A stretch of DNA of 64,000 nt from an uncultured Actinomycetota bacterium (GTDB lineage Bacteria; Actinomycetota; Actinomycetes; Mycobacteriales; Mycobacteriaceae): contig CAVZSJ010000005.1 in NCBI GenBank assembly GCA_963777885.1, positions 118,713 through 182,712 on the forward strand. The letters run 5' to 3'. The notes below the pieces were generated by a model, which ran no database searches, had not been told where the DNA came from, and saw only the letters and a program-made list of their open reading frames with translations. Position 1 is the stretch's first letter; the number at the start of each line of letters is the position of its first letter. A program made the translations under genes and the position numbers. Below are positions 9,860 to 52,417 of the stretch, one piece after another.

Positions 9860-12800
9860 GTGCCCCTTGACGGTGATGTGCGATCGCAGCGGCTACCGAG
9901 GCTGATCGCCGTCGTCGCGGGAATCGCGGGCATGTTGCTCTGCGCCGTGATCCCCGTGCTTCCGGTGAAACAGACGACGGCCACCATCCTGTGGCCGCAG
10001 GGCACCGCGGACGGGCACGTCAACCAGGTCACCGCGCCGCTAGTGTCCGGAGCTCCACGGGCCCTGGACATTTCCATTCCCTGCTCGGCGATCGCCACCC
10101 TGCCTGCAGAGGGCGGATTGGTGGTCTCGACCCTGCCGACCAACGGCGTGGACGCCGGGAAGAACGGCCTTTTCGTACGCGGCGACAAGGACACGATCGT
10201 GGTCGCCTTCCGCGATTCGGTGGCCGCGGTGGCGCAACGTACAGCCGTCGCCGCCGGTGCGTGCACGGTGCTGCACACCTGGGCCGACGCCGGCGGTGTG
10301 GGCGCGGACTTCGTCGGCATACCCGGCGCCGCCGGGACCCTTTCCGCGGACAAGAAACCTCAGGTCGGTGGGATCTTCACCGACTTGAAGGTTCCCGCAC
10401 AGCCCGGGCTGTCGGCCCGCGTCGACATCGACACACGGTTCGTCACGGCGCCCTCGATCAGCAAGAAGATCGCGATGGTCCTCGGTGCACTGGCGGTCCT
10501 GATCGCCATCCTTGCGCTGGCGGCCTTGGATCGCCACAGCCGCGGCGCAACACTGATCAACTGGCGCTCCCCGATTGCCTGGCTGTCCCGATACCGGCCG
10601 CGTGACCACCGGATCACGTGGCGGCATGTCGGCGCCGCGGGCTGGCTCACCGACGTCGCGGTGATCGGCACGCTGCTGCTCTGGCATGTCATCGGCGCTA
10701 CCTCCTCAGACGACGGCTATAACCTGACCATCGCCCGCGTTGCGCCCAAAGCGGGCTACGTGGCCAACTACTACCGGTACTTCGGCACGACCGAGGCGCC
10801 GTTCGACTGGTATTTCTGGGTGCTGGCCAAGATGGCGTCGGTGAGCACCGCCGGAGTCTGGATGCGGATCCCGGCGACCCTGGCCGGCATCGCCTGTTGG
10901 CTGATCATCAGCCACTGGGTGCTGCGCCGGCTGGGCCCAGGCAGAGGTGGCCTGGCCACCAATCGGGTGGCGGTGTACACCGCCGGAGCGGTGTTTTTGG
11001 CCGCGTGGTTTCCGTTCAACAACGGTCTGCGCCCAGAACCGCTGATCGCCCTGGGCGTCATCGTCACCTGGATGCTGGTGGAACGCTCGATCGCGCTGCA
11101 GCGGCTAGCGCCCGCCGCGGTCGCGATCGTTGTCGCGATGCTCACCGCGACCCTGGCCCCGCAGGGCCTGATCGCGGTTGCCGCGCTGCTGACCGGGGCC
11201 CGGGCCATCGCCCAGATGATCCGGCGCCGACTGCCCACGGACGGGCTGCTGGCGCCACTGTTTGTGCTCTCGGCGTCGTTGGCGCTGATCACCCTCGTGG
11301 TGTTCCGCAGCCAAACGCTGGCCACGGCCGCCGAATCGGTGCGCATCAAGTACAAGGTCGGGCCCACGATCGCCTGGTACCAGGACTGGCTGCGCTACTA
11401 CTTCCTCACCGTGGAGTCGAACCCGGACGGGTCGATGGCGCGCCGCTTCGCGGTCCTGGTGCTGCTGTTGTGCCTGTTCGGGATGCTGTTCATCCTGCTG
11501 CGCCGCGGCCGCGTTCCCGGGTTGGCCAGCGGCCCGGCGTGGCGCTTGACCGGTACCACCGCGATCGGCCTATTGCTTCTCACGTTCACGCCCACCAAGT
11601 GGGCGATTCAGTTCGGTGCGTTCGCCGGGCTGGCCGGCGCCCTCGGTGGGGTCACGGCGTTCGCGTGCTCCCGGATCGGCCTGCATAACCGCCGAAACCT
11701 GACGCTGTACGTGACGGCGCTGCTGTTTGTGCTCGCGGTGGCCACATCCGGAGTCAACGGCTGGTTCTACGTCGGCAACTACGGGGTGCCGTGGTACGAC
11801 ATCCAACCGGTCATCGCCAGTCACCCGGTGACGACGATGTTCCTGGCGCTGTCGATCCTGACGGGGCTGTTGGCCGCCTGGCAGCACTTCCGGATGGACT
11901 ACGCCGGGCACACCGAAGTGAAGGACAACCGGCGCAACCGGGTCCTGGCGTCGACGCCGCTGCTGGTGGTCGCGACGATCATGGTCCTGGGCGATGTCGG
12001 CTCGCTGGCCAAAGGCGCGGTGGGCCGCTACCCGCTGTACACCACCGCCAAGGCCAACCTGGCCGCTGTGTCTTCTTGGACGTCCGGCTCTCTGAGTGGC
12101 AGTTGCTCGCTGGCCGACGACGTGCTGGCCGAACCCGACCCCAATGCCGGCATGTTGCAGCCGGTGCCGGGGCAGACGTTCGGGCCTGACGGCCCGCTCG
12201 GTGGCGTCAACCCGGTCGGCTTCAAACCCGACGGCGTGGGCGATGACCTGAGGTCCTACCCGGTGGTGACCAAACCGGGCGTGGTGAATTCCGACGCGTC
12301 ACCCAATAAGCCCAACGCCACCATGAGTGACTCCGCGGGCACGGCCGGCGGCAAAGGCCCCGTCGGAGTCAACGGATCGCACGCGGCGCTGCCGTTCGGG
12401 CTCGACCCGGCCCGCACACCGGTGATGGGCAGCTACGGCGAGAACTCGCTGGCCGCCACGGTGACCTCGTCCTGGTATCAGCTGCCGCCACGCACCCCCG
12501 ACCGGCCTGTGGTGGTGGTATCGGCCACCGGTGCCATCTGGTCGTACAAAGAGGACGGCACCTTCACCTACGGGCAGCAGCTGAAATTGCAGTGGGGCGT
12601 CACTCGCCCCGACGGCAGCACCCAGCCGCTCGCGGAAGTGCAGCCGATCGACATCGGGCCGGAGCCGGCGTGGCGCAATCTACGATTCCCGCTCACCTGG
12701 GCGCCCCCGGAGGCGAATGTGGCGCGCATCGTCGCCTACGACCCGAACCTGAGTTCCGAGCAGTGGTTCGCGTTCACGCCGCCGCGGGTCCCGGTGCTGC

Positions 12801-43790: not shown

Positions 43791-43874
43791 GAACGTTCGT
43801 TCGTGGGGTTTTTCCAGACTCATATACCGTGTCGCCTCATAAATAACAATAGAAACACCCGTAACATCGGCGTT

Positions 43875-45488
43875 ATGGTGTCCCGCAGGCGTGCGCCGAC
43901 GATGTTGCTCACCGCTTTCGCGGCTGCCGTCGTCGTTGTGTCGTGGATCGTGGACCCGACACCCGAAAGCGGCCCAGCCGCTCCGGCCGGCGACACCCAG
44001 CTAGCCGAGCACCCGCTGGTCGGGCTCGGCGGCGGCGTGACGGTTCGCGAGGTTACCCAGGGCGCACCGTTTTCGTTGGTCGCGCTCACCGGCGACCTGG
44101 CCGGCACCGCCACGCGCGTGCGGGCGAAGCACGTCGACGGTTCCTGGGGACCCTGGTACCAGACCGACTTCGAAACCGGTGGGGCAACCGGTGGGGCCGA
44201 AGCGGCGGGACCCCGCAGCACCGACCCGGTGTTCGTCGGCACCACCACGTCCGTGCAGATCGCGGTCACCCGCCCGATCGATGCGCAGGTGACGCAGGCG
44301 CCGGCAGAGTCACCGCCGAACCTCGGATACAAACCGGCCACCAAGGAACAGCCCTTCGGGCAGAACATCTCCGCGATACTCATCTCCCCGCCGCAGGCGC
44401 CGGCCCGACCGCATTGGACGCCCCCGGAGGGAGTGCTGATGCCCGGCCAGGCACCCGCCATCATCAGCCGGGCGGATTGGGGCGCCGACGAGTCGCTGCG
44501 CTGCGGTACGCCAAAGTACGACAACGGGATTCGCGCCGCGGTAATTCACCACACCGCGGGCAGCAATGACTATTCACCCCTGGAATCGGCCGGCATCGTC
44601 AAGGCCATCTACACGTACCACGCCAAGACGCTGGGCTGGTGCGACATCGCGTACAACGCGTTGGTCGACAAATACGGCCAGGCATTCGAGGGCAGCGCGG
44701 GCGGTCTCACCAAACCCGTCGAGGCCTTCCACACCGGTGGGTTCAACCGCAACACCTGGGGTGTGGCGATGATCGGCAACTTCGACGATGTGGCGCCGAG
44801 CCCGCTTCAGGTGCGTACCGTGGGCCGGCTGCTCGGCTGGCGCCTGGGCATGGACAACGTCGACCCCAAGGGCACGGTGGCACTGGAATCGGCCGGTAGC
44901 CACTACACCACCTTCCCGGCCGGCGCCATTGCGACGTTGCCGACCATCTTCACCCACCGCGACGTCGGCAACACCGACTGCCCGGGCAACGCCGCCTACG
45001 CGTTGATGTACGAGATCCGCGACATCGCCTCACATTTCAACGATCCACCCGAGGAACTGATCAAGGCACTCGAAGGTGGCGCGATCTACCAGCACTGGCA
45101 GGAGATCGGCGGCACCAACAGCTTCCTGGGTGCACCGACCTCACCCGAGGACGACGCCGAGGGCGGGGCCCGCTACGCCACGTTCGTCAGGGGCGCGATG
45201 TACTGGTCGCCGGCCACCGGCCCCCAACCCGTGACGGGCGCGATCTACGACGCCTGGGCCTCGCTGAGCTACGAACGCGGTGTGCTCGGATTGCCGACCA
45301 GCGCGGAGATCCAAGAGCCACTGCAGATCACGCAGAACTTCGCGCACGGAACGTTGAACTTCGAGCGGTTGACCGGCAACGTCACCGCGGTCGTCGACGG
45401 AATCACCACGCCGGTCTCGACGCAAACCGCGAGCACACCAGAGGTCCCAGCCGAACACTTCTCGCCACCGGCCCACCCGGCCATCTAG
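43875..45488 (+). CDS. PGRP-like N-acetylmuramoyl-L-alanine amidase with LGFP repeat (Rv3811 ortholog)
   Basis: VIHHTAG, WCDIAYN, THRDVGNTDCPG, LGAPTSPE, LGLPTS. Confidence 0.9.
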   Translation: MVSRRRAPTMLLTAFAAAVVVVSWIVDPTPESGPAAPAGDTQLAEHPLVGLGGGVTVREVTQGAPFSLVALTGDLAGTATRVRAKHVDGSWGPWYQTDFETGGATGGAEAAGPRSTDPVFVGTTTSVQIAVTRPIDAQVTQAPAESPPNLGYKPATKEQPFGQNISAILISPPQAPARPHWTPPEGVLMPGQAPAIISRADWGADESLRCGTPKYDNGIRAAVIHHTAGSNDYSPLESAGIVKAIYTYHAKTLGWCDIAYNALVDKYGQAFEGSAGGLTKPVEAFHTGGFNRNTWGVAMIGNFDDVAPSPLQVRTVGRLLGWRLGMDNVDPKGTVALESAGSHYTTFPAGAIATLPTIFTHRDVGNTDCPGNAAYALMYEIRDIASHFNDPPEELIKALEGGAIYQHWQEIGGTNSFLGAPTSPEDDAEGGARYATFVRGAMYWSPATGPQPVTGAIYDAWASLSYERGVLGLPTSAEIQEPLQITQNFAHGTLNFERLTGNVTAVVDGITTPVSTQTASTPEVPAEHFSPPAHPAI

Positions 45489-45507: not shown

Positions 45508-47415
45508 GTGCCCGAGACGCCTTATCTGACCATCCATCTCGGTCGGGTGCGCGAGAACTACCACGCCTTGCACGCCGCACTGCCCGATGCGCGGATCCGC
45601 TACGCGGTCAAGGCGAATCCGGCCGAACCCATCCTGCGTCTGCTGGCGGCCGAGGGCGCGGCCTTCGACGTCGCCTCGATAGGTGAGATCGACGCATGCA
45701 CCGCCGCCGCGATCGACGGCCACCTTCTGACCTTCGGCAACACGCTCAAGAAGCCGGCGGACATCGCTCGAGCGTTCTCGATCGGGGTGCGTCGGTTCAC
45801 CTTTGACACGCACGACGGTGCGACAACCATCGCCGAGCATGCCCCCGGGTCAAGCGTGGAATGCCGTATCGCACCGGCGTTTCCGTCGTCGGTAACCCCG
45901 TTCGGCCACAAGTTCGGTTGCGCTCCGACCGAGGCCGTCGACCTGCTTGACTATGCCCGGTCGCTGGGCCTTCGGCCGGAAGGGGTGTGCTTCCATGTCG
46001 GCTCCCAACAGCTCGACCCCGCCGCATGGGAGATCGGAATACATTGTGCTGAAACGGTCTTCGCCGCCCTGAGCGATCTCACCACCCTCAACGTCGGCGG
46101 CGGCTTCCCCATCGCATACGCGACCGGCGCGCCGGAGCTCGGCCTGGTGACCGACTCCATCATGACCGCGCTGGACCGCCATTTCGGTTCGAGCCCGCCA
46201 CAACTCGTGGTGGAACCCGGACGGGCGATCGTCGGCTCGGCAGGCGCTATCCACTGCGAGGTGGTGTCGGCGCGCGCCGGTACCGATGGGCGGCGCTGGG
46301 TGTACCTCGACATCGGTCGCTACGGCGGCCTCGCCGAAACCGAGAACGAGTACATCCGCTACCGGTTGCGGACCGACCGCGACGACGACCCCGTCGACGA
46401 TGCCGTGATCGCGGGCCCGACCTGCGACGGCGACGACGTGCTCTACCAAAGCTATCCGCTTCCTGGCACGCTGCGGGCAGGAGACCGGGTCGAGATCGCG
46501 GACGCCGGCGCCTACACCGCAAGCTATGCTTCCGTATCGTTCAATGGATTTGCGCCCTTGCCAACGTATTTCGCGGGCAGCATCGCGCGGGACATCGTCG
46601 AGCCGCTGGCTCCCGGACTCACCCGCACCTGGCGGCTGTCGGAAGTCATCTGCGATGTGCGCACCGAATTCCAGCATGTGGTGATCGGCCGCACCGAACA
46701 GGGGGCCGCGTTGTTCTGCGACGGAGAGCGGCAGAGCACCGAGTTCAGCCAGCTCGTTTACCACGAGGCGCTGCTGGTGCCGGCGTTGTTGCTGGCAGGC
46801 AAGATCGAGCGCGTGCTCGTCATCGGGTCCGGCGAGGGGGTGGTCAGCCAGATGGCGGTCGCCGCCGGCGCCACGCATGTCGACCACGTCGACATCGACC
46901 GCGAGGCGGTGAGACTGTGCGCGCAGCATCTGCCGTACGGTTACGCGATAGACGAATTGCTCAGCGCGGAAAAAGGACTCGGCCCGATCACGGTGCACTA
47001 CCGCGACGGCTGGAGCTTCGTAGCCGAATCGAGCACGTCGTACGACGTCGTCGTCGTCGATCTGCCCGACGAGCGAACCGAACCCGTGCAGCACAATCGG
47101 TTGTACGAGGCCGGCTTCCTCAGAGCCTGCCGAGACACCGGTCGAGTGGTGGCCTTTCAGGCTGGGTGCCCGACCCTGTGGCGCAACGACTCGCTGCGGT
47201 ACTCGTGGCGTCGGTTTCACGAAACCTTTGACACGGTCGTGTATTTCGGCAGCGACGAACACGAATGGGCGTTTCTGTCGGGACTGGGCCACGCTGTGCC
47301 GGACCCCGTGGCGGCCATGTCCGCCCGCTTGCCGACCCTGCCCTACCAGCCTCGGACCATCGACACCGACTCGCTGATCGCGTCCACCATTGCGCCGAAA
47401 ACGCTCAGATCTTGA
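45508..47415 (+). CDS. Fusion of fold-type III PLP ornithine/lysine decarboxylase and spermidine-synthase-like aminopropyltransferase
   Basis: N: YAVKAN(K), FDVAS, HVGSQ, NVGGGF, EPGR, GPTCDG, GAYT..FNGF. C (from about 46590): EFQHV, DGERQST, YHE, VLVIGSGEG, VDID, DG, VVVDLPD. One uninterrupted 635-aa frame. Confidence 0.9.
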   Translation: MPETPYLTIHLGRVRENYHALHAALPDARIRYAVKANPAEPILRLLAAEGAAFDVASIGEIDACTAAAIDGHLLTFGNTLKKPADIARAFSIGVRRFTFDTHDGATTIAEHAPGSSVECRIAPAFPSSVTPFGHKFGCAPTEAVDLLDYARSLGLRPEGVCFHVGSQQLDPAAWEIGIHCAETVFAALSDLTTLNVGGGFPIAYATGAPELGLVTDSIMTALDRHFGSSPPQLVVEPGRAIVGSAGAIHCEVVSARAGTDGRRWVYLDIGRYGGLAETENEYIRYRLRTDRDDDPVDDAVIAGPTCDGDDVLYQSYPLPGTLRAGDRVEIADAGAYTASYASVSFNGFAPLPTYFAGSIARDIVEPLAPGLTRTWRLSEVICDVRTEFQHVVIGRTEQGAALFCDGERQSTEFSQLVYHEALLVPALLLAGKIERVLVIGSGEGVVSQMAVAAGATHVDHVDIDREAVRLCAQHLPYGYAIDELLSAEKGLGPITVHYRDGWSFVAESSTSYDVVVVDLPDERTEPVQHNRLYEAGFLRACRDTGRVVAFQAGCPTLWRNDSLRYSWRRFHETFDTVVYFGSDEHEWAFLSGLGHAVPDPVAAMSARLPTLPYQPRTIDTDSLIASTIAPKTLRS

Positions 47416-49363
47416 TCGACGGCAGCAGCCTGGTCAGGTTCCAGAGTCGGTTGCGCCGCGCGGATAGCGATGAGATCGCCAGTGCGACAGCCAATATGCC
47501 CAATAGTGTGATGATCGCCTGCCACAGCCGGTAGTCGATGCCGCCCAGAATCAACTGCCGAAGTCCGTTGACCCCGTATGACATCGGGTCAAAGCGATGC
47601 AAGATTTGGAACGGTTTCGAGGTGGTTTCTACGGGGTACATGCCGCCGGCGCTAACCAGCTGCAGCATGAGTAGAGCCATGATCAGCACCCGACCCACCG
47701 CTGGGCCGACGACGGCGTTGATCGCCTGGGTCGCGGCGACGAAGGCCAAGGAAACCAACACCATGAACGCCAGCATCGCGAACGGATGGACGGCGTGCAT
47801 CCCGAGCGCGAACCGCACGACACAGTAGAGGATGATCGCCTGGAACATCGCGATCGACGCCGCGGGCAGGTAGCTGGCGAGTACTACCCGGATCGACATC
47901 ACCTCAGCGGCGATCGCGCGGTTTTGCAAGGGACGCAACACCATCCACAGCACCAGCGCGCCGAAGAACAGAGCCAGCGTGAGGAAGAACGGCGCCATGC
48001 CGGTGCCGAAGTTGGGCGCGCCGTTTTTGTGGGTGGCCTGCAGATCAACCGGACCGCCGATGGTGTTGGCGATCGCGTCCTTCTGCTGGCTGGTCCAGTT
48101 GGGCACCTGGTTGGCGCCCTCGGCGAGTTTGCCGGCCAGTTCTGCCGCACCCGCCCGCAGTTGCCCGGTTCCCGAGTGCAGCTGTTGTGCGCCGTCGTCG
48201 AGTTTGGCTATGCCGGTTGCCAGTTCAGCGTTACCGGTGGCGAGCTGCTGAGCCCCGTTGCGCAGCTGATTCAGCTTGTTGGTGAGGTCAGAGCCTCGGC
48301 CGCCGACTCGGTCCAAGGCGGCTGTCAAGGGGCTCCCGGATGCGCGCAGCGACTGGGTCATCGAGATCGCGGCGCTTTCCGCGTCGGTCAGCTGCTGGCG
48401 GATCTGCGGCGTGAACTGGTGGCCCCGCAGCTGGTCCTGTATACCCCGCAGCGCCCCCGCGGCATTGCCGGCTGCTGGATCTGGGCTACCGGAGAGCTGA
48501 TCAATGACCGACGAGAGCGAGTTAGCGGCGGCGTCCTGCGCCGTGGCGATGGTGCCGATCTGGTCGGTGGCCTGCTGCAGGGCGGTGGTGCCCTGTTGCA
48601 ATCGCGCTGTGTCGCCGCCGATTTGGGCCAGCGCCTTGCTCACCGCCAGCAGTGGGTCGGTGGCTTCGTTGATCCCGTCGGACAGCTGCTTGGCGCCGGT
48701 GGCAAGCTGTGCCGAACCGGACCGTGCGGTATCGAGACCGGCCGCGAGCTGGCCGGCGCCGTCATCGACCTGGGCCGCCCCGTCGGCGAGCTGTTTTGCC
48801 CCGTCGGCGGCCTGCTTGATTCCGGTGCCGGACGTGACGACCACGGATAGCACGTGGTTGACCGCCTGCCCGGAGATGCGGGAGGACACGGCGTTGAGCA
48901 CCTGGTCGGTGGCAGTGCGGCCAATGCTGGACGAGATGTAGTTGTTGGCGTCGTTGTAGACCGCGATCAGATTGGCTTTCCGCGGTTGCCCGGTCAGGGG
49001 CGATGCGATCGCTTCACTGAAGTCCGGCGGCAACTCGAGCATGAAGTAGTACTGGCCGTGGTCGACTCCGCTGCGCGCCTGGTCGAGGTTCACGACATGC
49101 CAGTCCATGCCGCCGTCGGCGGTCAGGCTCTTGGCGATTTCTGACCCGACGTTCAGCTGCTGCCCGGAGACGACGGCGCCACGGTCGGCATTGACCAGCG
49201 CCACGGGCATCTTGTTCACGTGGCCGAAGGGATCCCAGTACGCCCACAGGTAGAGCGCTCCGTAGACCAGGGGGAGCAGCATCAGCACCACAATGGCTGC
49301 CCGCGTCATCCGGCTGCGGCCGAAACGTTTGATCTCCGAACCGAATGCCAGTCCAGCCAGCAT
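47405..49363 (-). CDS. YhgE/Pip family membrane protein
   Basis: PLVYGALYLWAYWDPFG..PVALVNAD, GAxQLAxG heptad repeats, NFGTGMAPFF, LQLVSAGGMYPVE, PMSYGV. Confidence 0.9.
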   Translation of the reverse strand: MLAGLAFGSEIKRFGRSRMTRAAIVVLMLLPLVYGALYLWAYWDPFGHVNKMPVALVNADRGAVVSGQQLNVGSEIAKSLTADGGMDWHVVNLDQARSGVDHGQYYFMLELPPDFSEAIASPLTGQPRKANLIAVYNDANNYISSSIGRTATDQVLNAVSSRISGQAVNHVLSVVVTSGTGIKQAADGAKQLADGAAQVDDGAGQLAAGLDTARSGSAQLATGAKQLSDGINEATDPLLAVSKALAQIGGDTARLQQGTTALQQATDQIGTIATAQDAAANSLSSVIDQLSGSPDPAAGNAAGALRGIQDQLRGHQFTPQIRQQLTDAESAAISMTQSLRASGSPLTAALDRVGGRGSDLTNKLNQLRNGAQQLATGNAELATGIAKLDDGAQQLHSGTGQLRAGAAELAGKLAEGANQVPNWTSQQKDAIANTIGGPVDLQATHKNGAPNFGTGMAPFFLTLALFFGALVLWMVLRPLQNRAIAAEVMSIRVVLASYLPAASIAMFQAIILYCVVRFALGMHAVHPFAMLAFMVLVSLAFVAATQAINAVVGPAVGRVLIMALLMLQLVSAGGMYPVETTSKPFQILHRFDPMSYGVNGLRQLILGGIDYRLWQAIITLLGILAVALAISSLSARRNRLWNLTRLLPSIKI

Positions 49364-49365
49364 CG

Positions 49366-50034
49366 TTAGCCCCCTTCGGTCAGGATGCGGTGATCGTGTA
49401 GGTCGTGATCGGGGGCGTTGGTTCCGAGCGGATTGGTGACCCCGACGACGACGGTGCGCTGCTCCGCGATCGCACCGAGCCGTTCGACTGCGACCGCCCG
49501 ACGGTCGTTGTCGCGAACTTGCTCGAGATCGCCGACCACCAGGATCGGTCGGTCCGAAAACAGCGCGAGCGTGATGCGCAGCAGGAACAGTTCCAGATCG
49601 GAAAGCTCGACGATGTAAGCCTTTGGCGCAGGCGGGGGAATGTCACCGAAGACTTGTGCCAGCTGGGCCGCACCGGGTTCGTCCGGCACCCGCGAATACC
49701 AGGGCGCCAACCATTGGCGTTGCTCGGCCAGCACAGTCTGAACGGTGACCATCTCCTCGAGCTCATCGATGTCGGCGAACGCCGCGATCGAGCAGTGCCG
49801 GCGGATGGCACGTGGTTCGGTGTCGCCCAGTACGGTCACCGTTCCGCGGGTGGGTTTGAGTCGGCCCGCCAGCGTTAAGAGCAACGTGTGCTGTTCCGGG
49901 CCGCCGGGCATCCGAATGGCGTGAAACCCAGCCGCGAGCTCGAGGTCGATGCCCGAGAACAGCGGTCCGTGTTCGCCGTCCAGACCTAACCCGGCCGCGG
50001 TGATCACGACCGGTATGTCCTGTGGGTCGTCCAT
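49366..50034 (-). CDS. Degenerate ABC ATPase-like protein
   Basis: ABC layout (GPLFSGIDL, LAGRLKPTRGTVTVLG) but Walker A = PGGPEQHT, signature = LSDLE, Walker B = ILVVGD. Confidence 0.75.
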   Translation of the reverse strand: MDDPQDIPVVITAAGLGLDGEHGPLFSGIDLELAAGFHAIRMPGGPEQHTLLLTLAGRLKPTRGTVTVLGDTEPRAIRRHCSIAAFADIDELEEMVTVQTVLAEQRQWLAPWYSRVPDEPGAAQLAQVFGDIPPPAPKAYIVELSDLELFLLRITLALFSDRPILVVGDLEQVRDNDRRAVAVERLGAIAEQRTVVVGVTNPLGTNAPDHDLHDHRILTEGG

Positions 50035-50041
50035 CTCGCCG

Positions 50042-50509
50042 CTACAGAATCGCGACCGCCACGACGATGCCCAGTGCGAACTGCGCCGCCGCGACCATCA
50101 GCGACTCGTAATTGAACTCGTCACTCTGGAACAGCGCGTCCATGTCGATGCCGATGACCAACGTGGCGAATCGCATCATCACCACCTGCGCGATAATTCC
50201 GACGAGCCCGAAAATCGCTGAGCCGACGAGCCCTTCGACCAGCTTTCCCGACGACGCGTAGATCGCCAGCACCACGATGAACGCCATGCTGACCATGCCC
50301 GCGGCGGCAACGACGATCGCGTTCGGCTTTCCGGCGTCGACCATCCTGCGCAACGGCCCCGGCGTGGTGAGGTCGATGGCGTAGAACCCGATCATCATCA
50401 GCACCAACCCGACGATGGCGTACAGGACGATGGCACCGACCCCGCGGGCGAGCACGTTCCAGTATCCCGCATCCCAATAGCCTGACAGGGCAACGCTGGT
50501 TGTTGTCAT
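50042..50509 (-). CDS. DUF350 (YjfL-like) membrane protein
   Basis: About 4 TM; IDLTTPGPL..G.PNA.VVAAA and AAAQFALGIVVAVAI; position beside GspS-like gene as in yjfL-yjfC. Confidence 0.75.
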   Translation of the reverse strand: MTTTSVALSGYWDAGYWNVLARGVGAIVLYAIVGLVLMMIGFYAIDLTTPGPLRRMVDAGKPNAIVVAAAGMVSMAFIVVLAIYASSGKLVEGLVGSAIFGLVGIIAQVVMMRFATLVIGIDMDALFQSDEFNYESLMVAAAQFALGIVVAVAIL

Positions 50510-50540
50510 CGATGATCAACTCCATTCAATTTCATTGGGT

Positions 50541-51719
50541 TCACGAGGATCCTTCTTTCAAAGGGATCCGGTGCGGGACAAAAGCTGCGCCGTCATCGGT
50601 CACCAGTCCGCCGGTCTCGCGGATACCAAGACCCGCCGACGAATCCCCGACGACCCATGCGCCCAGCGCGGGCCGCATGTCGTCGAATTGTGGCAACGGG
50701 TCCAACAATTGGTAGACGAAACCTTCCTCGCCGTAGACGCCGCCCGTCGCGGTGTCCATGCCGGCGCCGACGATGGTGATGTTGGCGCCCTCACGGCCGA
50801 GCTTGGGCTTGCGGACGTATTCGGTGAGCTCGTGCGGATCGTCGAGGTAGGCGGGCAGCAGGTTCGGGTGGCCGGGATACATCTCCCAGAGCACGGCCAG
50901 AATTGCCTTGTTGGACAACAACGTCTTCCACAGCGGTTCGATCCACATCGTCTGCGGCAGGCCCGACACCACATTTTTGCCGAACTCGTCTTCGAGCATC
51001 CATTCCCACGGGTGCAGCTTGAAGATGGTGTCGATCTGCGCCTCTTCCAGGTCGACGAACCGCTTCAGGGCGCTATCCCAACCGATGTCCTCGATCATCA
51101 AGCCGACGGTGTTGAAGCCCGCCTCCGCCGCGGTCTCCTGCAGGTAGGTCGTGGTGATCTGGTCCTCGCCAGTGGCTTCCACGCCGGACCAGCTGAAGTG
51201 TAATTCGTTGCTGGGCAGCAGATCACGAACCACCTTCCAACGGTCGACCAGTTGCTCGTGCAGCGAGTTCCACTGGTCGTCGTTGGGGAACTTGTCTTTG
51301 AGCCAGTACCACTGCAGGATCGCCGCCTCGAGCAGCGTCGTGGGTGTGTCCGCGTTGTACTCCAGCAGCACCGCCGGCCGGCGCCCGTCATAGCGCAAGT
51401 CGAATCGTCCGTACACGTGCGGATCGGAACGACGCCATGATTCGGCGATCGGTTGCCAACTCCATTCCGGCAGACCGAAATCTGCGTACCGCTCCATCAG
51501 TACCACCTGCTCGACGGCGTTCAGGCACATCGAATGCAGCAGCTCGACGTCGGCTTCCAGCGCCAGGATCTCGTCCATGTCGAACTCGTAGTACACCGAC
51601 TCGTCCCAGTACGGCCGGGCCGCGCCCCGCGCGTCACGCGCAGGTGTCCCGTACACCATGCCTTGGGATTCGACGATCGACCGCCAATTCGGTCGAGGCT
51701 GCGTCCTGAGCCGCTTCAC
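50541..51719 (-). CDS. Glutathionylspermidine synthase-like ATP-grasp ligase (YgiC/YjfC type, no amidase domain)
   Basis: YWDES.YY, YGRFDL, LLEYNADTPTTLLEA, QWNSLHE, FKLHPWEW, EPLWK..LSNKAIL, KP.LGREGANI, GLGIRE..T...F.PH. Confidence 0.93.
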   Translation of the reverse strand: MKRLRTQPRPNWRSIVESQGMVYGTPARDARGAARPYWDESVYYEFDMDEILALEADVELLHSMCLNAVEQVVLMERYADFGLPEWSWQPIAESWRRSDPHVYGRFDLRYDGRRPAVLLEYNADTPTTLLEAAILQWYWLKDKFPNDDQWNSLHEQLVDRWKVVRDLLPSNELHFSWSGVEATGEDQITTTYLQETAAEAGFNTVGLMIEDIGWDSALKRFVDLEEAQIDTIFKLHPWEWMLEDEFGKNVVSGLPQTMWIEPLWKTLLSNKAILAVLWEMYPGHPNLLPAYLDDPHELTEYVRKPKLGREGANITIVGAGMDTATGGVYGEEGFVYQLLDPLPQFDDMRPALGAWVVGDSSAGLGIRETGGLVTDDGAAFVPHRIPLKEGSS

Positions 51720-52417
51720 GAGCCCCCGCCCTTGCCGCCACTGAGCTTGCCGCCCAGCCCGCCGCGCTGAATGGTCGTGCCCGACCTCGTTTTAACGGTC
51801 GAGCCGCTGGGAGCCGATATCGAACCACCGATCGGTCGTTGACCGATTGATCCCGAGCTGCCGTAGTAGTACCGGTACTGATGTCCGCCGTAGAAGAAGA
51901 AGCCGTTGAGGCCCGCGGTGTGATTGGTGCAGTAGTCGTCCGGGACGATCACCGGTTGACCGTTGGTGTCGTCCCGGACGCATTGGGCAGTGACGGTGGG
52001 TCCTGAAAACGCCCAATACCCTAGGCCCGCAACCACGCCCACCACTCCGATGCCGACCCCGGCGCCGATCAGTCTGCGATTTCGCTTGTGCCGCTTGGCT
52101 TCCGCTTCGAGTCGCGCCTCTTCGTCCTCGCGCTGCTTTTTGGCGAACTTCTCCCGCGCGCGTAACTCGGCGGGTGTCGGCGCGCGTGGACGTGTCGTTT
52201 CCGCATCCTGAAACTCAACGCTGCCGCCCGACGGGTACGGCTTGGATTGCGTCGGTTCTTCCTGCTCCGACCAGGCCACTGGCGATTCGGGTTCGGCTTG
52301 ATGTTGGTCCGAATGGCGCCCGACCGATTCGGTCTTGTCTGCGTCGGTCTTGTCTGCGTCGGACTTGTCGCCTTGGGGCTCGCCGCTTTCCGGTGGTTTG
52401 TCTTCATCCGAACCCAT
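51716..52417 (-). CDS. YgiB/DUF1190-like single-pass membrane protein with Gly-rich C-terminus
   Basis: Acidic disordered N-terminus, KRHKRNRR + TM, C-x16-C (..PDDYC), Tyr/Gly-rich segment, ends TIQRGGLGGKLSGGKGGGS; GTGA overlap with the ligase gene; GGAGG RBS. Confidence 0.7.
   Translation of the reverse strand: MGSDEDKPPESGEPQGDKSDADKTDADKTESVGRHSDQHQAEPESPVAWSEQEEPTQSKPYPSGGSVEFQDAETTRPRAPTPAELRAREKFAKKQREDEEARLEAEAKRHKRNRRLIGAGVGIGVVGVVAGLGYWAFSGPTVTAQCVRDDTNGQPVIVPDDYCTNHTAGLNGFFFYGGHQYRYYYGSSGSIGQRPIGGSISAPSGSTVKTRSGTTIQRGGLGGKLSGGKGGGS

Follow-up and report, generated by a model that had tools for sequence, protein, structure and literature searches.

A gene in a 64,000-nucleotide stretch of DNA from an uncultured bacterium of the Mycobacteriaceae (hereafter the window; contig CAVZSJ010000005.1 of assembly GCA_963777885.1, positions 118,713 to 182,712) encodes a predicted pyridoxal phosphate (PLP)-dependent decarboxylase of the lysine/ornithine type fused to a SpeE-type aminopropyltransferase, in a genome that has no recognisable S-adenosylmethionine decarboxylase (AdoMetDC). 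Aminopropyltransferases and AdoMetDC are regarded as inseparable; in this case a natural deletion has taken AdoMetDC out of a three-enzyme module, and both remaining domains have been held under purifying selection ever since. A base composition of 63-69% GC, the neighbouring genes (glfT2, glf and an Amidase_2-LGFP gene) and the homologues assign the window to Mycobacterium.

The gene consists of a single uninterrupted open reading frame (ORF) with a GTG start, which encodes a protein of 635 amino acids (aa). Pfam recognises Orn_Arg_deC_N (PF02784) at residues 12-242 (E-value 6.6e-42, 144 bits against a gathering cut-off of 23.4), Orn_DAP_Arg_deC (PF00278) at residues 232-334 (E-value 1.4e-13, 51.4 bits, cut-off 23) and Spermine_synth (PF01564) at residues 417-560 (E-value 4.2e-12, 46.4 bits, cut-off 22.9). 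An AlphaFold2 monomer model, with a predicted local distance difference test (pLDDT) score of 79, is good in the barrel and the SpeE core and poor in the decarboxylase beta-sheet domain. The first-pass annotation, made from the letters of the window, had proposed a two-domain ORF in which an ornithine/lysine decarboxylase is joined to an aminopropyltransferase with an acidic glycine-loop residue. This description holds: the frame is intact, a stop separates the domains in none of 57 orthologues, and translation recovers each of the motifs it had named, including the lysine of AVKAN at 45610. It had also considered that either domain might be inactive; neither carries signs of inactivity in its sequence.

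The same continuous ORF was found at 56 further loci in contigs representing one genome per species (71-87% identity), and more than 120 full-length clusters of a protein collection contain it (73-98% identity), so the fusion is not a sequencing artefact. Carrier species include Mycobacterium intermedium, M. simulans, M. triplex, M. genavense, M. montefiorense, M. sherrisii, M. simiae, M. asiaticum, M. gordonae, M. gastri, M. persicum, M. szulgai, M. angelicum, M. bohemicum and M. heidelbergense. The public annotations of these orthologues are wrong or uninformative: clusters are named 'alanine racemase', 'spermine/spermidine synthase domain-containing protein' or 'diaminopimelate decarboxylase/spermidine synthase', the first being NCBI's label for many of them and the last the one used by IMG. 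The copies at L057, L061, L062, L073, L076, G004 and G041 show one or two frame changes, in several cases close to residues 340-400; all except G041 are in metagenome bins, and these could be assembly indels, pseudogenes or re-split genes. Of the 150 best matches among 1.84 billion cluster representatives, just two combine a decarboxylase with SpeE in the absence of AdoMetDC, namely the Mycobacterium cluster and a distant singleton. The latter (P0177, L088:1061-3031, 656 aa, 35% identity), on a short metagenome contig, joins an ornithine decarboxylase (ODC) to a canonical SpeE and is an unrelated, independent fusion event; a gene for a BpsA-like branched-chain polyamine synthase (L088:3-1049) directly precedes it.

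The closest solved relatives of the N-terminal domain in a PDB sequence search are the lysine/ornithine decarboxylase of Selenomonas ruminantium (SrLDC, 5GJM, E-value 1.7e-58) and the lysine/ornithine decarboxylase (L/ODC) of Vibrio vulnificus (2PLJ), followed by eukaryotic ODCs and a chlorovirus arginine decarboxylase, with diaminopimelate (DAP) decarboxylases far lower in score. Foldseek with the AlphaFold2 model returned the same ranking, with SrLDC on top (35% identity, E-value about 1e-29, target-normalised template modelling score 0.77). The key residues are K35, H163, G197-G199, E236 and R239 (EPGR), D268, C306-D307 and Y336. Conservation was scored in 57 fused sequences (mean pairwise identity about 75%) and compared with 20 orthologues in which the parts are split between two genes; all the residues just named are invariant in the 77. 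C306-D307 (in GPTCDGDD) and D268 (in LDIGRYG) line up with the motifs of SrLDC and ODCs. A pair of the D268/D307 type binds the distal amine of ornithine or lysine in ODCs. An invariant acidic stretch, A-E-T-E-N-E-Y (276-282), lies in the specificity region and is specific to the family. On these grounds the N-terminal domain is assigned to the bacterial lysine/ornithine-type decarboxylases, as first proposed, and not to LysA. An identity as LysA was ruled out by a score of 153 bits against a cut-off of 297.9 for TIGR01048 and by CDG in place of CES, and a genuine LysA with CESGD is encoded separately in the same genome (C2:710746-711789). Outside the window, a LysA-like paralogue of 457 aa (C5:321425-322489, minus strand) has methionine in place of the Schiff-base lysine (YAGMAL) and GEVGD in place of CESGD, and is likely a pseudoenzyme; a further one, at C17:173758-174834, has intact motifs.

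The C-terminal part comprises an N-terminal beta-hairpin subdomain (363-411) and a Rossmann core, and matches SpeE of Pyrococcus horikoshii, Trypanosoma cruzi and Thermus thermophilus in the PDB (E-values 4e-18 to 2.5e-15). Its key residues are Q409, Y418-H419-E420, G440-S-G-E443-G444, D462, D500-G501, D518-L-P-D521-E522 and the loop Q528-Y533. The donor, acceptor and catalytic set, that is the glycine-loop acid, the type of residue that contacts the amine of decarboxylated SAM (Glu443 in GSGEG), the ribose acid, the adenine D-G, DxxD, Y-x-E and Q, is thus complete, and it is invariant in the fused and split sequences alike.

The origin of the fusion can be read from the 20 split loci, where the match to the query is interrupted by about 350 extra bases. 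These loci belong to Nocardia, to Mycolicibacterium llatzerense and relatives and to several Mycobacterium sp. genomes. They have a separate decarboxylase gene (363-366 aa) and then, overlapping it, a gene for an AdoMet_dc + Spermine_synth fusion of ~400 aa. The AdoMet_dc domain (PF02675, E-values 2e-31 and 1e-30 in split relatives) lies between the decarboxylase and SpeE modules and retains the ESH...IH...TCG processing and catalytic signature; as an N-terminal class 1b AdoMetDC domain with ES processing site it is present in L064-L075 and L077-L082 and absent in the window protein. In the split form the decarboxylase ends in '...SFNGF..L..F...' and a stop, after which the next gene reads 'G(C)HVLAEF...[AdoMetDC]...TVFRG.GK. 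IVEP.APG.TR.W'. The window protein reads '...SFNGFAPLPTYF AGSIARD IVEPLAPGLTRTW' at this place ('...FNGFAPLPTYF-AGSIARD-IVEPLAPG'), which aligns exactly with the two ends of the split form; it therefore corresponds to the two-gene module minus the stop codon and ~115 aa of AdoMetDC, in frame. The junction comparison thus shows that the fusion arose by one in-frame deletion of the decarboxylase stop codon and the ~115-aa AdoMetDC domain, and the variable 7-residue linker AGSIARD is its scar. In a maximum likelihood tree of the decarboxylase and SpeE parts, rooted with Nocardia, the split Mycobacteriaceae form one clade (support 98) and the base is unresolved; a single loss of AdoMetDC would suffice and the tree is compatible with it. 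A third permutation, on a metagenome contig (L087:2239-4598), has a decarboxylase-AdoMetDC fusion of 510 aa and a stand-alone SpeE-like gene of 276 aa, from which it is clear that the three activities belong together; the two genes overlap by 4 nucleotides (nt).

The absence of AdoMetDC extends well beyond the gene itself. The source genome assembly (6.28 Mb, 18 contigs) is 100% complete. It has no match to PF02675, for which seven control genomes were positive, and none to PF01536, for which the positive control was not valid. A hidden Markov model (HMM) made from the AdoMetDC domains of the relatives themselves and run with --max against all six-frame ORFs of the genome gave a best E-value of 0.13. 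The remark of the first-pass annotation that no speD lies near the gene therefore holds genome-wide, and what it treated as a loose end is the central fact. The other three fold-III paralogues of the genome were considered as a SAM decarboxylase and rejected; none is an obvious one, since each of them resembles LysA, and in one the catalytic Lys and Cys are missing. A compensating gene was sought between the fusion gene and a nearby DUF350 gene in six species, and nothing consistent was found: only PE-family, MFS, P450, LysR, DUF202 and YhgE genes. Among 81 Mycobacterium genomes evenly spread across the genus, PF02675 was found in four, three with the split module and one with another AdoMetDC-SpeE fusion, and in none of the ten that carry an intact fusion. 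SpeE-like proteins (PF01564) occur in 40 of the 81, mostly as the membrane-fused Rv2601 type. The source genome itself encodes an Rv2601-type SpeE-like protein of 522 aa (C7:62520-63038, minus strand, locus L001), with GGGDG, DLPDPD and an N-terminal multi-pass membrane domain; this too has no AdoMetDC partner in the genome, and the same is seen in about 30 of the 81. The combination of a SpeE-like protein with no AdoMetDC is thus general among mycobacteria.

Deletion of AdoMetDC left little trace in what remained. The fused sequences show no variation at any of the 13 SpeE positions for donor, acceptor and catalysis, at 12 decarboxylase positions or in the gatekeeping loop Q528-Y533, although just 99 of the 271 positions of the SpeE domain are invariant overall. 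Ratios of nonsynonymous to synonymous substitution (dN/dS) were estimated by the Nei-Gojobori method on separate alignments for each domain. For decarboxylase and SpeE, respectively, these were 0.19 and 0.18 in the fused group, 0.22 and 0.23 in the split Mycobacteriaceae, and 0.17 and 0.11 in Nocardia, which is split. The fused SpeE is therefore no less constrained than in those Mycobacteriaceae that keep AdoMetDC. A search for type I and type II divergence with thresholds of 90% identified no residue at which the fused and the split form are fixed for different states; lowering the thresholds to 75% brings out two conservative shifts alone, P/A324 and V/I438. Both domains therefore behave as though their jobs were unchanged by the deletion. 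By these measures both are shown to have been under equal purifying selection since the deletion, and the orphaned SpeE domain is not decaying.

We favour, with a probability of about 0.45, a working diamine-forming decarboxylase and aminopropyltransferase that together feed a polyamine ligase. The N-terminal domain would act as a head-to-tail dimer and form putrescine or cadaverine by decarboxylation of L-ornithine and/or L-lysine. The C-terminal domain would have kept its ability to bind a nucleoside donor as well as an amine acceptor, and most probably continues to transfer an aminopropyl group to the diamine; Glu443 of the glycine loop and the DLPD motif suggest the type that uses decarboxylated SAM (dcSAM). 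The amine product may then be passed to an ATP-grasp ligase encoded nearby and conjugated to a carboxylate. Since the AdoMetDC domain has been deleted and the genome is without AdoMetDC, triamine synthesis would require dcSAM from a source other than a recognisable AdoMetDC. The decarboxylase dimer could also replace the AdoMetDC domain in its dimerising role in AdoMetDC-aminopropyltransferase fusions. What stands of the first-pass annotation is the real fusion, the Orn/Lys-type decarboxylase, the intact SpeE motifs and the lack of speD; channelling from diamine to triamine and aminopropylcadaverine as product, which it had also suggested, stay conjectural.

Several points weigh against this function. 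No source of dcSAM could be identified in the genome, and canonical SpeE is described as depending strictly on AdoMetDC, of which spermidine synthase (SpdSyn) has been termed the 'obligatory partner' (PMC10407285). Both domains score far under the NCBIfam equivalog cut-offs (LysA 153 against 298; SpeE 93 against 260 for PRK00811 and 73 against 250 for TIGR00417), so their substrates are not readable from family membership and the SpeE part represents a divergent subfamily; the substrate of the decarboxylase is read solely from homology and the D268/D307 pair. Finally, M. smegmatis was reported to have no detectable polyamines (PMC8503589), so mycobacteria are not known polyamine producers, and the product here may be conjugated or restricted to a lineage.

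The main rival is that only the decarboxylase turns over, in a pathway that became shorter once AdoMetDC had gone: an amino acid would be converted to a diamine and the diamine handed to the ligase, with the SpeE domain retained for binding, regulation or assembly, for instance to sense diamine, methylthioadenosine (MTA) or SAM, or to dock the ligase. This would fit the absence of AdoMetDC from every fusion-bearing genome examined and a ligase that could take diamine directly, and it has a precedent in animal spermine synthase, whose AdoMetDC-like domain is dead but kept for dimerisation (PMC12803844). A pure scaffold, however, would be expected to drop the catalytic aspartates, and the perfect retention of catalytic residues (13 SpeE positions and the loop, in a domain where most positions vary), a dN/dS not above that of AdoMetDC-keeping Mycobacteriaceae and the lack of fused-versus-split divergence argue against it; we regard it as somewhat unlikely. 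That the fused gene is a decaying relic, a mis-assembled gene pair or an ordinary LysA or alanine racemase paralogue, as the public labels and the frame changes in a few metagenome-derived copies might suggest, is already contradicted by the data and has next to no probability: 57 orthologues are intact, dN/dS is about 0.18-0.19 in both halves, the dipeptide is CD and not CES, the LysA score is half of the cut-off with a true LysA elsewhere in the genome, and with one exception the frame-shifted copies are in metagenome bins.

The missing donor could also be explained by the protein itself. If the fold-III PLP domain decarboxylated SAM, alone or besides ornithine and lysine, the pyruvoyl AdoMetDC would have become redundant, which would explain how it was lost without trace in either domain and why the PLP domain now occupies its former place, N-terminal to SpeE; the frequency of SpeE-like proteins without AdoMetDC in the genus (PF01564 in 40 against PF02675 in 4 of the 81 genomes) fits as well. 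We nevertheless consider this very unlikely. D268 and D307 are kept, identity to a lysine decarboxylase is 35%, no PLP-dependent SAM decarboxylase was found in literature searches, and in the split relatives the PLP domain occurs alongside what looks like a genuine AdoMetDC, which points to another task for it. Moreover, there are genomes with only the membrane-type SpeE and no PLP domain, so the PLP domain cannot solve the general mycobacterial puzzle. A change of donor chemistry, in which SpeE takes the 3-amino-3-carboxypropyl group from SAM itself and the resulting carboxy-polyamine is decarboxylated by the PLP domain, would make dcSAM unneeded and the physical fusion logical, and carboxyspermidine-type routes to spermidine and spermine do exist, but via aspartate semialdehyde (PMC10599626, PMC11999265). 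Glu443, identical in the AdoMetDC-bearing relatives, is the kind of residue that selects for dcSAM and is unfavourable to the carboxylate of SAM; the PLP domain falls among the L/ODCs, its NCBIfam matches include no model for carboxy(nor)spermidine decarboxylase, the loss of AdoMetDC was accompanied by no residue changes, and literature searches found no transfer of the carboxyaminopropyl group of SAM in polyamine synthesis. This chemistry appears extremely unlikely. A broader proposal, that mycobacteria make the aminopropyl donor by an unrecognised non-pyruvoyl route, through the PLP domain acting on SAM or through another enzyme, and that this route would also feed the Rv2601-type proteins, is on the present comparisons decidedly unlikely; if true, it is this route that made the AdoMetDC domain dispensable.

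The residues for catalysis and binding in SpeE are preserved across dozens of AdoMetDC-less Mycobacterium species, in the M. simiae, M. kansasii-gastri, M. gordonae, M. asiaticum and M. szulgai groups. Either mycobacteria possess a new dcSAM source or a new donor, or selection can maintain SpeE domains for a role that is not aminopropyl transfer. Each outcome is relevant to the role of bacterial clusters of SpeE-like, DUF350 and glutathionylspermidine (GSP)-synthetase-like proteins, and to whether mycobacteria, usually deemed not to produce polyamines, make a conjugated one. For experimental comparison, the fused and split forms constitute a natural pair.

The ligase mentioned above belongs to a cluster with the DUF350 gene and a gene for a small membrane protein (50042..52417, minus strand), convergent with the fusion gene (Table 1). 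This linkage is found in about 50 loci, almost all, and it persists in a second context, that of L064, L065 and L067-L070, where the module is split and the glf neighbourhood is missing. Linkage in two genomic contexts argues for a functional unit. Clusters of DUF350 and GSP-synthetase-like genes have been found to associate with polyamine genes (PMC11237479). The 233-aa membrane protein has an acidic N-terminus, one transmembrane helix and a Cys/Tyr/Gly-rich outer domain with a tail ending GGKLSGGKGGGS. Its gene lies upstream of the ligase gene and overlaps it, a position that corresponds to that of yjfM in the yjfL-yjfM-yjfC cluster of Escherichia coli. In M. llatzerense (L075) genes for a DinB-type mycothiol S-transferase and a VanY-like M15 peptidase (L075:9376-9942 and 12287-12781) flank the split module and stand in place of the ligase cluster. 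On the 5' side the fusion gene has the syntenic context glfT2-glf-orf-amidase. Only in the window and in L003, L004 and L049, its three closest relatives, does the space between the fusion and DUF350 genes hold the YhgE/Pip gene and the 222-aa ORF; in other species it is occupied by PE-family, MFS, P450, LysR or DUF202 genes, so the site is a variable insertion hot spot.

Table 1. Coordinates in the window of the fusion gene, its domains and motifs, and the neighbouring genes.
Feature	Position	Strand	Basis or remark
Amidase_2 + LGFP cell-wall amidase gene	43803..45488	+	Pfam; 19 nt upstream of fusion start
PLP decarboxylase-SpeE-like fusion, whole gene, 635 aa	45508..47415	+	ORF and Pfam
Fold III (alanine-racemase-fold) PLP basic-amino-acid decarboxylase domain, aa 1-355	45508..46572	+	Pfam, PDB sequence search, Foldseek
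AVKAN motif	45604-45618	+	Translation; K35 codon 45610-45612
GPTCDGDD motif	46414-46437	+	Translation
Linker AGSIARD, 7 residues, variable	46573..46593	+	Junction comparison, column variability
SpeE-type aminopropyltransferase domain, aa 363-635	46594..47412	+	Pfam, PDB search, conservation, dN/dS
DGERQ motif	46720-46734	+	Translation
YHE motif	46759-46767	+	Translation
GSGEG glycine loop	46825-46839	+	Translation
DLPDE motif	47059-47073	+	Translation
YhgE/Pip-family membrane protein	47405-49363	-	Pfam
222-aa ORF	49366-50034	-	Between YhgE/Pip gene and DUF350 gene
DUF350 membrane protein	50042-50509	-	Pfam
GSP-synthetase-like preATP-grasp ligase	50541-51719	-	Pfam, E-value 2.9e-148
Single-pass membrane protein, Gly-rich tail, 233 aa	51716-52417	-	Translation; no Pfam match

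No paper describing a decarboxylase-SpeE fusion was found in literature searches, and the first-pass annotation's question whether the architecture had already been characterised is answered to that extent. Related fusions are known. Bacterial AdoMetDC-aminopropyltransferase fusions, including a Nocardia farcinica protein, were reportedly described by Green et al. (Mol Microbiol, 2011), and those of Pelagibacter and delta-proteobacteria have been assayed (PMC11107197, PMC12803844). The SpeE part of the window protein has its orthologue (60-70% identity) in the SpeE half of the Nocardia and Mycolicibacterium AdoMetDC-SpeE proteins, with an identical GSGEG loop, DLPDE and beta-hairpin in the split relatives, and the decarboxylase gene that neighbours these is the same as the decarboxylase fused here. 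Unlike them, the window protein has no AdoMetDC domain and so fails the defining feature of that group; a formerly separate PLP decarboxylase has taken its place. With SrLDC, the V. vulnificus L/ODC and eukaryotic ODC it shares the fold and the catalytic set (PLP Lys, His, Gly loop, EPGR, Asp, Cys-Asp and Tyr), whereas identity to the alanine-racemase-fold L/ODCs is about 35% and these have neither the A-E-T-E-N-E-Y stretch nor a fused aminopropyltransferase.

Two polyamine activities, consecutive or converging, in one polypeptide are also found in the bifunctional AdoMetDC/ODC of Plasmodium and in other polyamine enzyme fusions, and the decarboxylase-AdoMetDC protein of L087 is a bacterial counterpart, as an ODC-like-AdoMetDC fusion. 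The Plasmodium enzyme differs in partner domains and lineage, and the window pair lacks the enzyme that would link the two activities metabolically. Fusions of a membrane protein with a SpdSyn-like domain, associated with DUF350 and AdoMetDC, are attributed to Li, Kurihara, Kim, Liang & Michael (2019, Biochem J) in PMC11237479. The Rv2601 type, from the Rv2597-Rv2601 locus of M. tuberculosis, resembles the fusion in that a DLPD-type SpeE-like enzyme is tied to DUF350 and GSP-synthetase-like ligases and occurs in mycobacteria without AdoMetDC. The window protein has a decarboxylase instead of the membrane domain: it has no multi-pass membrane segment, and its N-terminus is a soluble TIM-barrel decarboxylase. 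Animal spermine synthase, derived from an AdoMetDC-spermine synthase fusion (PMC12803844), is likewise an aminopropyltransferase that lost its AdoMetDC function; animals, however, keep the dead domain for dimerisation together with a separate AdoMetDC gene, whereas here the domain has been excised and no AdoMetDC is present. To the known polyamine-enzyme fusions the window protein would thus add an uncharacterised variation, a decarboxylase-SpeE protein without AdoMetDC.

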